Source of the DNA: Thermoprotei archaeon
Lineage (GTDB): Archaea; Thermoproteota; Thermoprotei; QMSL01; B3-G16
Reading direction: 5' to 3'
DNA: 64,000 nucleotides
NCBI GenBank assembly: GCA_021162845.1
Contig: JAGGXX010000054.1
Span: forward strand, 4,537 to 68,536
This document shows, piece by piece, positions 25,472-56,848 of the stretch. Every line of letters starts with the position of its first letter. Position 1 is the stretch's first letter. A program made the position numbers and the translations under genes. Under the pieces are notes generated by a model, which was not told the DNA's origin, made no database searches, and worked only from the letters and a program-made list of their open reading frames with translations.

Positions 25472-25837
25472 TCATTCAACGTTTATCTTCTTGCCAGCTA
25501 TCTTCTTCGGTAAGATAACGGTCAAAAGGCCATTTTCGTATTTAGCAATGACGTTGTCTGGATTTACCTCTGAGGGTAGGACTAGGTATCTGTGATATAC
25601 TGGCGATATGTAAAATCTGCGAGCCTCTTCGGGTATCTTAGCCTTAACGCGGACTGCACGTCCATCAACGTAGAGCTCTATATCCTCCTTTCTAAGGCCG
25701 GGCATTACGAACCTTAGCACTATTTTATCTACCTGATCCTCTAGGTCCACTCCTTCCAATAGTGCTAATCCCTTCTTCAAACGCCCGATGAGTGCACTAA
25801 GAGGTGGCATGGTTAAGGAGAACACATATACGCCCAT
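25472..25837 (-). CDS. hsp20: Hsp20/alpha-crystallin family small heat shock protein
   Basis: Alpha-crystallin domain with ...ENGLLTVILPKK... 121 aa. Confidence 0.85.
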   Translation of the reverse strand: MGVYVFSLTMPPLSALIGRLKKGLALLEGVDLEDQVDKIVLRFVMPGLRKEDIELYVDGRAVRVKAKIPEEARRFYISPVYHRYLVLPSEVNPDNVIAKYENGLLTVILPKKIAGKKINVE

Positions 25838-25847
25838 TTACCACACC

Positions 25848-26273
25848 TCATTCGATCGGTACCCGCCTCCACCCTCTGCCCCTTTCTCTTCGCATAAGAC
25901 CCTCCATTATCAGTAATGACGTTAAGAGCAGGCGTTCTCCCTTGGGAGATAACTGGTATGCGCCGTTCCGTTTGTCCACGAGACCGCAACGAGTCATGAG
26001 TTTTAGATTAAAAGACACGATCCTAGGATTCATGCTCAGGCTGGAGACGAAGTCCTGAAATCTCATTCTTTTACGTCTTAACATCTCGAGCATCATCAAT
26101 AACCGCTTCGCATTGGAAAGAGCCTTATGCACTTCAGTGAATTCCCTTACCTCGTTAAGCGTCTGATCTACATCTCCCAATAATCTGGTCATTATATCCC
26201 TGAGTTCTTCCTGCGGTAGACTGAAATCAATTAGCTTCTCATCGTCCTTCATTATTATTATCCTTAACTTCAA
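25848..26273 (-). CDS. winged-HTH (ArsR-like) transcriptional regulator, co-directional with and 10 nt upstream of hsp20
   Basis: HTH-like segment ...RFQDFVSSLSMNPRIVSFNLKLMTRCGLVDKRNGAYQLSPKGERLL. The track start is TTG (26273); an in-frame ATG lies at 26252. Confidence 0.5.
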   Translation of the reverse strand: MKLRIIIMKDDEKLIDFSLPQEELRDIMTRLLGDVDQTLNEVREFTEVHKALSNAKRLLMMLEMLRRKRMRFQDFVSSLSMNPRIVSFNLKLMTRCGLVDKRNGAYQLSPKGERLLLTSLLIMEGLMRRERGRGWRRVPIE

Positions 26274-26293
26274 GGGGCTCTCCTCGGGGAGGT

Positions 26294-26321
26294 TACATTA
26301 ATGTAATTACATTAATGTAAT
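26294..26321. promoter_or_regulatory. two tandem copies of the perfect 14-bp palindrome TTACATTAATGTAA in the promoter of the regulator-hsp20 operon
   Basis: Seen directly: ggTTACATTAATGTAATTACATTAATGTAAtttaagc. It lies 21-48 bp upstream of the TTG start and overlaps AT-rich TATA-like sequence. Confidence 0.55.
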
Positions 26322-40535: not shown

Positions 40536-40635
40536 GCCGGGGTGCCCGAGTGGACCAAGGGGCTGGCCTGGAGAAGGCCTAGAAAGCCAGTTCCCCATAC
40601 GGGGAGCGCGGGTTCGAATCCCGCCCCCGGCGCCA
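40536..40635 (+). tRNA. tRNA-Ser (class II, long variable arm, G73 discriminator, encoded CCA) with a short (~11 nt) intron in the anticodon loop; anticodon most likely GGA
   Basis: Hand-folded. Acceptor GCCGGGG/CCCCGGC. D arm CCC-GAGTGGACCAA-GGG. Anticodon stem CTGGC/GCCAG enclosing 18 nt (CTGGAG + intron + A). Variable arm hairpin CCCC-ATAC-GGGG. T arm GCGGG-TTCGAAT-CCCGC. Discriminator G, then CCA. A TATA-like ttataaag lies ~45 bp upstream. Confidence 0.75.
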
Positions 40636-53489: not shown

Positions 53490-54500
53490 TCACTCTAATT
53501 GTGAACTCACGTAATACATGCTCTGCCTAGCGTCTCTCAAATTAGGCGTCTTGATCACAAGGCCCTTCTTAAGTAGGAGGGAGAGGGCGTATCTGACGGT
53601 TCTAGGTGGGAGCAATGTCCTACGGGCGATGTCCTTTTGCGTTAGAGGACCTTCATATTCTAGTACTTTAAGGACCAGTTTAGCGCTAGGCGGCATCTTG
53701 ATCAGCTCTTTAGCCAGCTCTACCTTCTTATAGAGTCTATCATGTACATGAGAACTCCTCTTTAGGCGTATCAATTTAATGTACTTCCCCATGCCTGTAA
53801 GACATATCCCCTTATGTACCTTACAGCGCAATATACCGTCGGCTATAGCTTCAATATCGCAAGAGCTTTCTATCTCGTTCAGGATCACTGTGGAGTCGCT
53901 TGGGACTACCAGGGGCCTCCTGGTTAAATCCATTGAGTTGACCGGAGTTACGACGAAAGCCTTAGTACCGATGAGCATTAAGGGGCCTCCAGCGGACATG
54001 GAATATGCGGTCGAGCCTATCGGCGTGGCCGCTATGACTCCATCGGCCATATCGCGCCATATGTACTCCCCGTTAACCCAAAGGCCGTATTTCATAAGCG
54101 TAGCGCTCTTTGAAGGGAATATGCATATCTCGTTCACGGCCCATAGCTCCACCTCGGAGTCGACGAGACCTCTTATCAGCTCGCTCTTCTCCAGCTTATA
54201 ATCCTCCGAGAATAACCTTTCAGCGACCCACCCTAAGTCTTTGAAAGTGATATCGGTTAAGAAGCCTATGCTATTCGCATAGTTCACGCCCAATACAGGT
54301 CTCTCGAAGATTCTCAGTTCGTGATATGCCCTCAAGACCGTCTTATCGTCACCTATCACTAAGGCGATATCGTAGTCACAGGACATTTCCTTCGGGAATA
54401 GTACTTCCATCCCTAGGGAGGTAAGGCGGCGTATTATGTGATCTGCTTTACTTTTTAATGAGTTATCCAGATATACCAGGGCCTTCATATGAATTCGCAC
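53490..54500 (-). CDS. nadK: NAD kinase fused to a C-terminal winged-HTH (MarR/TrmB-like) domain
   Basis: NAD kinase motifs are present: NYANSIGFLTD (NxGxLGFL) and DGVIAATPIGSTAYSMSAGGP. The GGDG region reads IGDDKT. The last ~80 aa, KLVLKVLEYEGPLTQKDIARRTLLPPRTVRYALSLLLKKGLVIK, are a clear HTH. Confidence 0.7.
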   Translation of the reverse strand: MRIHMKALVYLDNSLKSKADHIIRRLTSLGMEVLFPKEMSCDYDIALVIGDDKTVLRAYHELRIFERPVLGVNYANSIGFLTDITFKDLGWVAERLFSEDYKLEKSELIRGLVDSEVELWAVNEICIFPSKSATLMKYGLWVNGEYIWRDMADGVIAATPIGSTAYSMSAGGPLMLIGTKAFVVTPVNSMDLTRRPLVVPSDSTVILNEIESSCDIEAIADGILRCKVHKGICLTGMGKYIKLIRLKRSSHVHDRLYKKVELAKELIKMPPSAKLVLKVLEYEGPLTQKDIARRTLLPPRTVRYALSLLLKKGLVIKTPNLRDARQSMYYVSSQLE

Positions 54501-54724
54501 CTCGCATGATTTGATGCCGGTGATGAATCCTGGCTTACGTGTCTAAGTAATATCTTCAATAAGTCTATTAAAATCAAATCACATCATGAGGATCTTAAGC
54601 AAGATGCCTTTAATGATTTGATCTGGCCTAAAGGAAGGGTGAGGAGGTAAAATGTTCATTGTAAAGTAATATTCATGAGAAGTTTGATCTTGTTAACAAG
54701 CGGGGTGAGGTCAGTTTCCGTTGC

Positions 54725-54982
54725 TTAACATTTATTGCTAGGAAGTTTCATTTGGCGCCTTAGTTTTTTAATCCCTTCTTCAAATACCCTGTCTTCGTCG
54801 ATTTCGCCGAGTCTGGAAGAGTATAGCTCTATGGGGTCTATTAGTTTACGGGGTACTAGTATTATTCTATTGTCCTTAATCGTTACTATGAGTTCATCTC
54901 CTTCTTTGATCTCTGCTTTGTGCCTGATACTTGCCGGAAGTTTTAATATTCCGCCTTTATACACCTTAATGATCTCGTACAT
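54725..54982 (-). CDS. AbrB/SpoVT (swapped-hairpin) domain protein, VapB/MazE-type antitoxin-like
   Basis: N-terminus MYEIIKVYKGGILKLPASIRHKAEIKEGDELIV is typical of SpoVT/AbrB antitoxins. 85 aa. Confidence 0.55.
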   Translation of the reverse strand: MYEIIKVYKGGILKLPASIRHKAEIKEGDELIVTIKDNRIILVPRKLIDPIELYSSRLGEIDEDRVFEEGIKKLRRQMKLPSNKC

Positions 54983-54986
54983 GGTA

Positions 54987-55029
54987 GTAACCTTTATTAC
55001 TATTAGTAACTTAAGGTAATAAAGGTTAC
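54987..55029. promoter_or_regulatory. 14-bp perfect inverted repeat GTAACCTTTATTAC ... GTAATAAAGGTTAC (15-bp spacer) filling the 48-bp gap between the divergent AbrB-like and PIN genes
   Basis: Seen directly: catGGTAGTAACCTTTATTACtattagtaacttaagGTAATAAAGGTTACCatg. The arms run up to both start codons. Confidence 0.45.
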
Positions 55030-55030
55030 C

Positions 55031-55480
55031 ATGAGAGGATCATTGCTTTGTGATACCATATGTGTCTGGGCTCTCTATTTTCGAGATTCAGCTTATCGTA
55101 AGCACGTACTTAAGTTGAGGTCGAGTAATCTACTGACAATACCTGATATATGCCTTATAGAGGCGTCCTACCCGATATATGAGGCTAAAGGTCTTGATGA
55201 GCTAAAGAGGTATTCTAGGTTTGTTGAGAACATAATCCTAGCACATAACATTAAGGTGTTGACCGTATCTTTAGAGGATCTAGCTAAAGCCTTAAATTTA
55301 GCTGTAGTCAACCCTGAGGTCTTTATAGATGAGGAGGGCAACCTATGCTTATTTGACGCATTGATAACCTCGATATGGATGAGGACTAATGTCCCTCTTG
55401 TTACGTCGGATAAGAGGCTCATAGAGTTCGGTGAGAGAAGGGGATTAAGTGTAATAAGGTTACGAAAGGCTAAAGTATAG
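55031..55480 (+). CDS. PIN-domain (VapC-like) ribonuclease
   Basis: Acidic residues in PIN positions: LLCDTICVWALYF (Asp near the N-terminus), ...LFDALITSIW... and ...VTSDKRL.... 149 aa. Confidence 0.55.
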   Translation: MRGSLLCDTICVWALYFRDSAYRKHVLKLRSSNLLTIPDICLIEASYPIYEAKGLDELKRYSRFVENIILAHNIKVLTVSLEDLAKALNLAVVNPEVFIDEEGNLCLFDALITSIWMRTNVPLVTSDKRLIEFGERRGLSVIRLRKAKV

Positions 55481-55709
55481 GAGTTACAATTCTTAAAATG
55501 ACTTTTAGACAAAATTGATTAGCTTTAAAGGCAAATTATGTGATAGCGTTTTAAGTTCTCTTTTTAAATCACTAGATAATGCGATATTCTGCGCTTAGTA
55601 ATAGGGAGAGGAACTTGTTTATAAGAGATGGTTACTATCGAATGGTCAGTAAAGCCATGCTATTTCATCTACTCAATTGAAACCTCCTTCATCATCCCCT
55701 AAGGATGAT

Positions 55710-56792: not shown

Positions 56793-56848
56793 CTGTAACC
56801 CTAGGATTTAAGAGATGGAGTTCAATATTTGGTTAGCGGTCGAGGGAT

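Follow-up and report, generated by a model that had tools for sequence, protein, structure and literature searches.

A head-to-head AbrB–PIN gene pair in hyperthermophilic archaea: a VapBC-like cassette with a compact intergenic gap

In a 64-kb stretch of DNA from a Thermoprotei archaeon (64,000 nucleotides of contig JAGGXX010000054.1, hereafter the window), a gene for an AbrB-type protein and a gene for a PIN-domain protein lie head-to-head, separated by only 48 bp. The divergent order is conserved among relatives, the pair moves between genomes as a unit, and the gap carries conserved motifs and is under selection. On balance, we lean towards explaining the pair as a mobile VapBC-like cassette of hyperthermophilic archaea, whose genes would be transcribed back-to-back from interdigitated promoters controlled by AbrB bound to GTWACC boxes. 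The components are as follows.

54725–54982, minus strand: open reading frame of 85 amino acids, AbrB/SpoVT/MazE-type gene, candidate VapB-like antitoxin and repressor
55031–55480, plus strand: open reading frame of 149 amino acids, PIN-domain gene, VapC-like putative ribonuclease toxin
54983–55030, no strand: divergent intergenic gap of 48 bp, sequence GGTAGTAACCTTTATTACTATTAGTAACTTAAGGTAATAAAGGTTACC

The earlier note on this DNA had described this arrangement, and the open reading frames and their coordinates bear it out. The A of the AbrB ATG (54982) and the A of the PIN ATG (55031) are exactly 49 bp apart. A cognate antitoxin elsewhere for the PIN protein had been named as a finding that would speak against the pairing; in the list of open reading frames, none adjoins the PIN gene in the same direction.

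Gene identities

The 149-residue protein matches the PIN family above its cut-off (PF01850, 26.5 bits; cut-off 23.6), and no NCBIfam model matches it. It contains the acidic residues D8, E44, D109 and D127; among 21 PIN homologues E44 is invariant, and the other three are at least 90% conserved. Because a profile search of PDB sequences returned only one marginal match (Rickettsia felis VapC2, E 0.02), a fold search was needed to place the protein. The AlphaFold model, for which the 21 homologues were used, has a predicted local distance difference test (pLDDT) score of 95.8 and a predicted template modelling (pTM) score of 0.88. Its top Foldseek matches in the PDB, at probability 1.00, are VapC toxins and archaeal PIN proteins, including Shigella VapC, the F-plasmid and Rickettsia VapBC, M. 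tuberculosis VapCs, PAE0151 and PAE2754, with 5ECW, 3TND and 3ZVK among the matched VapBC structures. Template modelling scores for these matches are 0.62–0.72, with sequence identities of only 13–23%. An exhaustive profile search of 1.84 billion protein representatives recovered 26 proteins at E ≤ 1e-3; by sequence, the PIN family is isolated. Overall, the protein models as a VapC toxin with its conserved acidic active-site residues intact.

The 85-residue partner scores above the cut-offs of both PF04014 (MazE_antitoxin/SpoVT-AbrB; 30.7 bits, cut-off 24.7) and TIGR01439 (AbrB; 37.1 bits, cut-off 28.3), and thus has the small size and the N-terminal AbrB/SpoVT DNA-binding domain (about residues 1–46) of a VapBC partner. 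The remaining ~40 residues form a tail that is as well conserved as the DNA-binding domain and combines an acidic stretch with terminal Arg residues (LRR). Its motif, DPxE..SSxLG.(I/V)DED..FEEG.K.LRR, is conserved across the family (~30 partners), and the tail is also kept in more distant partners, a co-directional one included. A 100% identical protein in a Thermoprotei archaeon metagenome-assembled genome is annotated as AbrB/MazE/SpoVT family, and the same locus is present on conspecific contigs. Among solved structures, the AbrB-like chains nearest to the 85-residue protein come from stand-alone AbrB-family regulators of Sulfolobus (2L66, 5ITJ); they are 48–54 residues long and align only to residues 3–44. 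Assignment of the window protein to this domain-only, stand-alone type of ~50 residues was considered and rejected on account of the extra conserved tail of ~40 residues.

Conservation of the divergent order

When one genome per species and, in addition, metagenome contigs were scanned, 7 + 35 loci with a PIN relative were found, at 51–82% identity over the best aligned segment. An AbrB homologue lies immediately upstream of the PIN gene, on the opposite strand, in 40 of these 42 loci, and in the two exceptions (L023 and L036) only 82 and 18 nt of contig precede the PIN match. The 40 include two cassettes, L016 and L017, with a deletion that took out both 5′ ends. When start codons were set by alignment, 28 of 30 distinct gaps measured 36–48 nt (sixteen of these 36–39 nt, two more 41 nt) and the other two 85 and 95 nt. 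Three further contigs, with independent gene calls, carry the same divergent pair across gaps of 48, 44 and 37 nt. The lineages with the cassette include Culexmicrobium, Thermofilaceae, Thermofilum, Bathyarchaeia, Pyrodictiaceae and Methanodesulfokora.

The exhaustive profile search also produced a more distant tier of PIN proteins, 160–172 residues in length, with the following neighbourhoods.

P0054, locus L047: AbrB-like partner, divergent
P0056, locus L053: AbrB-like partner, divergent
P0053, locus L050: opposite-strand AbrB-like N-terminus (MSIVTVYE), where the contig ends
P0058, locus L054: broken AbrB remnant, in the position seen in L050
P0060, loci L055 (1290–1989) and L056 (210–909): same-strand AbrB gene upstream, 26-nt overlap (the arrangement of a classical vapBC)

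In the divergent loci of this tier (L047, L053, L050 and L054) the gaps are 70–100 nt long and contain GTNACC or GTACA boxes. The survey of orthologous pairs proposed in the earlier note therefore finds divergence to be family-wide, as it extends over all 40 informative loci, the three further contigs and most of the distant tier. The antitoxin-first operon typical of VapBC occurs neither in the window nor in the 40 informative loci or the three further contigs. It does occur in the P0060 pair, whose PIN protein is homologous to that of the window (profile E 7e-12) and whose homologous AbrB partner has the C-terminal motif VDEDxxLEE. Orientation has therefore changed within the AbrB/PIN superfamily, in one direction or the other. 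This operon-form relative is the strongest argument available for a toxin-antitoxin reading, as it suggests a VapBC-type couple with changed orientation, not unrelated neighbours.

The P0060 pair adjoins two DUF433 genes. Separately, a Methanodesulfokora metagenome-assembled genome (L058, 5044–5663) encodes a classical co-directional PIN pair, a 76-residue gene and a 130-residue PIN gene with a 4-nt overlap, about 600 bp from a divergent AbrB-PIN cassette, so that both layouts occur in one genome.

Mobility, decay and partnership

None of the four genes that flank the pair in the window is found in any of the 42 related loci. DNA similarity to the closest relative, L001 (~70% amino-acid identity), spans only 54756–55473, that is, the two genes. 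Because the flanks are unshared and the similarity to L001 stops at the gene ends, the pair is best described as a self-contained two-gene cassette that moves between genomes. Its patchy presence, in differing contexts and in several archaeal classes, is as expected of a mobile VapBC module. A tblastn search for the cassette in plasmid and phage collections gave no match. Pairwise identities of the PIN and AbrB proteins are tightly correlated across 20 complete pairs (r = 0.86; Mantel 0/5000), and the two genes appear to be cognate partners.

PIN genes have decayed in several lineages in which the AbrB gene is mostly intact. In Methanodesulfokora washburnensis, two PIN frameshifts are seen in three independent assemblies (L007, L039 and L040), and frameshifts also occur in L035, L036 and L037. 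N or S takes the place of the active-site residue D8 in L026, L030, L035 and L041, and the PIN start codon has changed from ATG to AGG in L030/L031. In L040, the AbrB tail is frameshifted too. Repeated decay of PIN with retention of AbrB is consistent with an addiction module, and is not proof of one.

A more drastic form of damage occurs in L016 (~800–910) and L017 (~229–339), where a deletion of ~250 bp joins the C-terminal half of AbrB (from about residue 57) to about residue 14 of PIN. The whole gap is gone along with both 5′ ends, leaving a dead cassette on two contigs.

Might AbrB be an ordinary transcription factor that controls PIN transcriptionally, with no neutralising contact between the proteins? 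Divergent regulator/target pairs with a shared operator are common, and the nearest solved relatives of the AbrB protein are regulators that act alone. There is also a precedent in RacR/YdaS-YdaT of E. coli, where a repressor is encoded divergently from toxin genes (PMC5700373, PMC5700377). Nevertheless, we regard this explanation as unlikely. The long tail is conserved like the DNA-binding domain and, with its acidic stretch and terminal Arg, looks like the tails of VapB proteins; a homologous pair exists as an overlapping operon; and the two proteins co-diverge tightly. The distribution is patchy and mobile, and the asymmetric decay of PIN fits an addiction module. The suggestion in the earlier note that the pair may not be a classical toxin-antitoxin system at all has become less likely in view of P0060.

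The inverted repeat

The 48-bp gap is identical to that of L001 at 43 of 48 positions (90%), whereas third codon positions of the two genes on either side are only 55% and 61% identical in the same comparison. As the gap is far better kept than these silent sites, it is under selection. Much of it consists of the perfect 14-bp inverted repeat pointed out in the earlier note, with arms GTAACCTTTATTAC (54987–55000) and GTAATAAAGGTTAC (55016–55029). The repeat extends to 21-nt arms with 86% complementarity and 1 nt between them, giving an imperfect palindrome that has its centre at 55008 and takes up 43 of the 48 bp. In 20,000 shuffles of the gap, no perfect inverted repeat of 14 bp arose (the maximum, 13, was reached twice), and the entire window has only two perfect inverted repeats of at least 14 bp with a loop of ≤40. 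The shuffles and this census rule out a chance origin.

Among relatives, the repeat is mostly missing. Dyad symmetry of the gap ends goes beyond shuffles in four of the 30 distinct gaps, namely those of the window and L001 (14/15) and, in one other sub-lineage, of L007 and L015 (12/15), and the 14-bp repeat itself is kept at 13/14 in L001. No significant end-to-end dyad symmetry relative to shuffles was found in the 36–39-nt gap classes. The other ~24 distinct gaps keep the PIN-proximal arm and the GTWACC boxes and nothing else of the repeat. The perfect palindrome is therefore lineage-specific and not a family feature, and the idea of the repeat as a conserved operator, which the earlier note would have given up if orthologous loci lacked it, largely falls.

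Allowing ≤2 mismatches, the 14-mer has one other match in the window (42900), which is within chance, so a wider regulon is not supported. GGTWACC is not enriched in the window (8 occurrences, 6 expected). A scan of the gap for sigma-70 promoters and intrinsic terminators found nothing, with bacterial models that are inappropriate for an archaeon. In Rfam, no family reached its gathering score on the gap; a mir-75 match of 20 bits (against 60) merely reflects the potential hairpin.

We consider it improbable that the gap is purely an operator, with the 14-bp arms as half-sites for one AbrB dimer or tetramer and no promoter elements. Such an operator could explain the perfect 14/14 symmetry that shuffling never reproduces and its near-complete retention in L001 despite diverged silent sites, and VapB proteins are known to bind pseudo-palindromes in promoters (PMC13488343, PMC3384007). 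However, symmetry is significant in so few gaps while the AbrB DNA-binding domain is well conserved throughout, the T/A core of the arm drifts by A/T swaps in the manner of a TATA box, and a gap of 36–48 bp forces promoter elements onto the same bases anyway. The proposal that AbrB represses both promoters from one operator survives in part: the repeat does cover the region in which both core promoters must lie, and a single 14-bp operator is too simple.

Far less credible still is a role for the palindrome as an RNA hairpin that sequesters a start region in a transcript spanning the gap, such as a PIN mRNA begun inside the AbrB gene. Plus-strand RNA of 54976–55040 is predicted to fold at −21.6 kcal/mol (z = −4.2 relative to shuffles). 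Against this, a hairpin requires a promoter inside the neighbouring gene and a transcript that includes both arms, the structure is missing from most orthologous gaps, and no Rfam family is found at threshold. Moreover, the stem is A/U-rich and was folded at 37 °C, and the organisms come from hot environments.

The other perfect 14-bp inverted repeat of the window, at 26293–26320, consists of TTACATTAATGTAA twice in tandem and forms a perfect palindrome of 28 bp, ~20 bp upstream of a 141-residue minus-strand open reading frame (25848–26273) with weak matches to ArsR-type helix-turn-helix (HTH) domains, which is followed by an Hsp20 gene (25472–25837). This palindrome looks like a candidate operator of an autoregulated small heat-shock operon.

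Promoter modules and GTWACC boxes

Archaeal promoters have a transcription factor B recognition element (BRE) just upstream of the TATA box, whose centre precedes the start by ~26–27 nt, and Thermoproteota commonly have leaderless mRNAs. The gap of the window can be divided into elements of this kind.

54987–55000, plus strand: left arm, with BRE-like AGTAAC (54986–54991) and TATA-like CTTTATTA (54992–54999), directed toward PIN
55016–55029, minus strand: right arm, with BRE-like GGTAAC (55030–55025) and TATA-like CTTTATTA (55024–55017), directed toward AbrB
55006–55011, plus strand: central GTAACT box, flanked by the two TATA-like elements and separated by 19 nt from either outer GTAAC/GTTAC box

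The left arm contains a GTAACC box, and its TATA-like element is centred ~35.5 nt before the PIN ATG; in the right arm, the corresponding distance to the AbrB ATG is ~38.5 nt. The plus strand of the right arm reads AAAGGTTACC-ATG, which could provide PIN with a short Shine-Dalgarno-like leader. The central GTAACT box is a candidate core operator, placed where a bound protein could block recruitment of RNA polymerase at both promoters.

On the minus strand before the PIN ATG, GGWAAC followed by YTTTAWWA is present in 28 of 28 short-gap loci, and nothing else in the gaps of the family is conserved so well. The only changes in its T/A part are A/T swaps (TTTAAATA, TTATAA, TTTAATA, TTTATAA, TTTATTA and TTTATATATAA), which is the behaviour of a TATA box and not of a sequence-specific half-site. 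In 36–39-nt gaps, this PIN-proximal module is centred 25.5–29.5 nt from the AbrB ATG. Its sequence, order and distance are those expected for the BRE and TATA box of a promoter that yields a leaderless AbrB mRNA. A mirror module follows the AbrB ATG on the plus strand, with a purine-WAAY hexamer and then a T/A-rich stretch 26–35 nt before the PIN ATG.

The gaps are also strongly enriched in GT[AT]ACC, at 34.9 per kb, as against 0.48 per kb for the loci outside the gaps (52 observed, shuffle mean 0.8). Usually one box stands at an end of the gap, and in 17 of 30 gaps (among them the 37-nt class, L005, L012 and L002) a second is found between the TATA-like elements; similar GTNACC boxes occur in the distant tier. 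Service as BREs alone would explain neither the specificity of these boxes nor how often they are internal, and they are the best candidates for the AbrB recognition element, likelier than whole arms. Taken together, the comparisons tip us towards a repeat made up of two core promoters in inverted orientation, with operator boxes inside them, in preference to one dedicated operator.

Would a single, shared TATA box suffice? The central TATTAGTA (~55001–55008) could in principle drive two leaderless transcripts with starts 49 bp apart, leaving the arms as flanking sequence. The ATG-to-ATG distance of the window equals the spacing measured for a bidirectional promoter of Pyrococcus furiosus (PMC6640164), and at the centre the window differs from L001 in a single T/A swap. 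But TATTAGTA is a poor TATA box with a G inside, the flanking BRE positions are T-rich instead of A-rich, and one TATA box cannot be placed ~26 nt from both starts in gaps of 36–39 and 41 nt (16 + 2 of 28). Short-gap relatives, moreover, keep two separate TATA-like elements. By sequence, the window does not have the BRE-TATA-BRE arrangement, in which one TATA box lies midway between starts ~49–50 bp apart, and we place the odds of a shared TATA box lower than those of a dedicated operator.

Several observations weigh against two promoters controlled by a VapB-like AbrB. The assignment of BRE and TATA elements is positional, and in the window the TATA-like cores are 35.5 nt (PIN) and 38.5 nt (AbrB) from the ATG, not ~26. 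These distances imply leaders of 9–12 nt, whereas the 36–39-nt class fits leaderless transcripts; the leaders in the window would read AAGGTTAC(C), with a weak Shine-Dalgarno-like AGGT. GGTTACC beside each ATG can be read as a weak Shine-Dalgarno sequence (AGGT) as well, some relatives have AGGTGACC there, and these sites may serve translation too. The 14/14 match exceeds the symmetry that two independent promoters require, and a reasonable further cause is selection by a protein that binds as a dimer, which may account for it. Counts of the enriched boxes come from related, non-independent sequences. Finally, the closest solved AbrB-like chains belong to regulators and not to antitoxins, and the monomer model of the AbrB protein is poor (pLDDT 55.8) and unusable.

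The host genome provides some context for the promoter reading. Genes of the window have TATA-like motifs at varied distances, and many have GGAGG or GGTGA leaders, so that leadered and possibly leaderless transcripts are mixed. A second compact divergent gap (56793–56848, 56 nt) separates a THUMP-SPOUT methyltransferase gene and a HIT gene; TATA-like elements precede both starts there by ~35–40 nt, and a GTAACC box lies 4 nt from the THUMP-SPOUT GTG. Short leaders and divergent promoters that interdigitate thus seem to be nothing unusual in this genome. The second gap therefore supports two promoters in the AbrB-PIN gap, yet makes the compact arrangement alone less special.

Proposed mechanism

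A gap of 36–48 bp is about as long as one archaeal core promoter, and two promoters sharing it would have to interdigitate. On the plus strand the predicted order is AbrB start, BRE for PIN, TATA for PIN, central box, TATA for AbrB, BRE for AbrB and PIN start, each BRE-TATA module abutting the start codon of the other gene. Transcripts would begin 0–12 nt before each ATG. In the window and L001, the two modules would have turned into identical or nearly identical inverted copies, visible as the 14-bp repeat. GTWACC boxes in both BRE-like elements and between the TATA boxes may be recognition sites for AbrB dimers, and AbrB would probably bind together with PIN, in a complex whose two DNA-binding heads could shut both promoters at once. 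The PIN protein would be a toxin that AbrB neutralises by direct protein-protein contact.

TATA-binding protein (TBP) and transcription factor B (TFB) assembled on one module would cover the initiation region of the other gene, making the two promoters mutually exclusive. In that case, competition between the promoters and occupancy by the repressor could determine the toxin:antitoxin ratio, in place of operon polarity or translational coupling. Carried to its end, this line of thought is that the cassette abandoned the operon in favour of a promoter-competition toggle, in which mutually exclusive core promoters within 36–48 bp are held by an AbrB(-PIN) clamp on GTWACC. We offer this fuller version tentatively, as a possibility that we think is more likely wrong than right.

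Neighbouring features

The gene that directly follows AbrB, also on the minus strand, is a NAD kinase gene (53490–54500) that encodes a fused C-terminal MarR-type winged helix (residues ~263–326). The spacer of ~224 nt between the AbrB stop and the NAD kinase start contains a 28-nt direct repeat at 54617–54644 and 54683–54710 (71% identity, 66 nt apart; TTTGATCT...GGGTGAGG). The repeat was not seen in the other loci, whose flanks are not shared with the window.

The spacer downstream of the PIN gene contains a candidate archaeal C/D-box small RNA (sRNA) on the minus strand (55644–55699), which lies ~14 nt after the stop of the THUMP-SPOUT gene. Its order is C box ATGATGA (55695–55689), 12-nt spacer, TTGA, ATGAAAT, 12-nt spacer and D box CTGA (55649–55646). 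Against the Rfam families sR5 and sR2 it scores only 17–18 bits, with gathering scores of 40–42. The sole tRNA gene of the window (40536–40635, plus; ~100 nt) probably contains an intron; it scores 47 bits in the Rfam tRNA family, and ARAGORN gave no anticodon.

Novelty and significance

Full-text literature searches, of incomplete coverage, found no description of a divergent VapBC or AbrB-PIN family. The large comparative survey of toxin-antitoxin systems by Makarova and colleagues mapped co-directed neighbours only and so would have missed divergent pairs by design (PMC2701414). If the toggle described above is real, a class of divergent toxin-antitoxin pairs may escape surveys of this kind. 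The family is a conserved but modest variation on a well-known type of system, solid as comparative genomics and with a predicted function.

Models of type II toxin-antitoxin systems presume one shared mRNA, whether they invoke conditional cooperativity, translational coupling or control of the protein ratio by gene overlap and start codon (for the last, PMC13488343). The divergent AbrB-PIN family may be a natural test case for how an excess of antitoxin is achieved without an operon, and for archaeal repressors that act on two pre-initiation complexes at once. The 36–48-bp gap, as a compact natural bidirectional archaeal promoter, may also find use in vitro for studies of TBP/TFB orientation and promoter interference.

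Comparison with known systems

So, is the pair a VapBC system? It shares much with AbrB-type VapBC modules such as those of Shigella flexneri (VapBC/MvpAT) and Rickettsia felis (VapBC2): a PIN toxin of ~130–150 residues with four acidic residues, a small partner whose AbrB/SpoVT domain is N-terminal and whose C-terminal tail is conserved, symmetric repeats across the promoter, and a mobile, patchy distribution. The Shigella complex is a hetero-octamer that fills two operator sites across the promoter with its two DNA-binding heads (PMC3384007). Known VapBC complexes have a C-terminal Arg of VapB in the acidic pocket of VapC (PMC13488343), and by analogy an Arg of the AbrB tail may reach that of PIN. 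Unlike these modules, the window pair is head-to-head and lacks a shared mRNA, polarity and translational coupling; its promoter is predicted to be archaeal (BRE/TATA) instead of sigma-70; and its PIN protein, with no NCBIfam model, is distant in sequence from all solved VapCs matched. The P0060 pair combines a homologous PIN protein and a homologous AbrB protein, C-terminal motif included, with the AbrB-first, same-strand, overlapping layout that the window pair does not have.

Among archaeal systems, NgVapBC1 of Natrinema gari is reported as the first archaeal VapBC that autoregulates via a pseudo-palindrome, GTGCTAC-N4-GTATTAC, which lies beside the TATA box and for which repression through a blocked pre-initiation complex is proposed (PMC13488343). 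It is likewise an archaeal VapBC-type pair, with GTA..AC-like half-sites. However, NgVapBC1 is a co-directional operon with a 4-nt overlap, and its VapB:VapC ratio depends on the overlap, start-codon choice and transcript truncation (PMC13488343); a divergent pair has none of these controls at its disposal.

The BRE-TATA-BRE bidirectional promoters of P. furiosus have one shared TATA box and starts 49 bp apart, and mostly give non-functional antisense RNA (PMC6640164). They are archaeal regions that fire both ways via TBP symmetry, as predicted for the window gap, at a spacing equal to the ATG-to-ATG distance in the window. They differ in that the window has two TATA-like elements for two conserved protein genes, and most gaps of the cassette family are too short for a shared TATA box. 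RacR/YdaST of the E. coli rac prophage also pairs a repressor gene with divergent toxin gene(s) under shared intergenic control (PMC5700373, PMC5700377). That system is bacterial and prophage-borne, its proteins are unrelated to AbrB-PIN (an Xre/cI-type HTH repressor and non-PIN toxins), and neutralisation is transcriptional only, whereas the conserved AbrB tail suggests an antitoxin role at the protein level here. In its protein content, the window pair is VapBC-like; without the defining antitoxin-first operon, it is better regarded as a variant than as a plain member of the VapBC systems.

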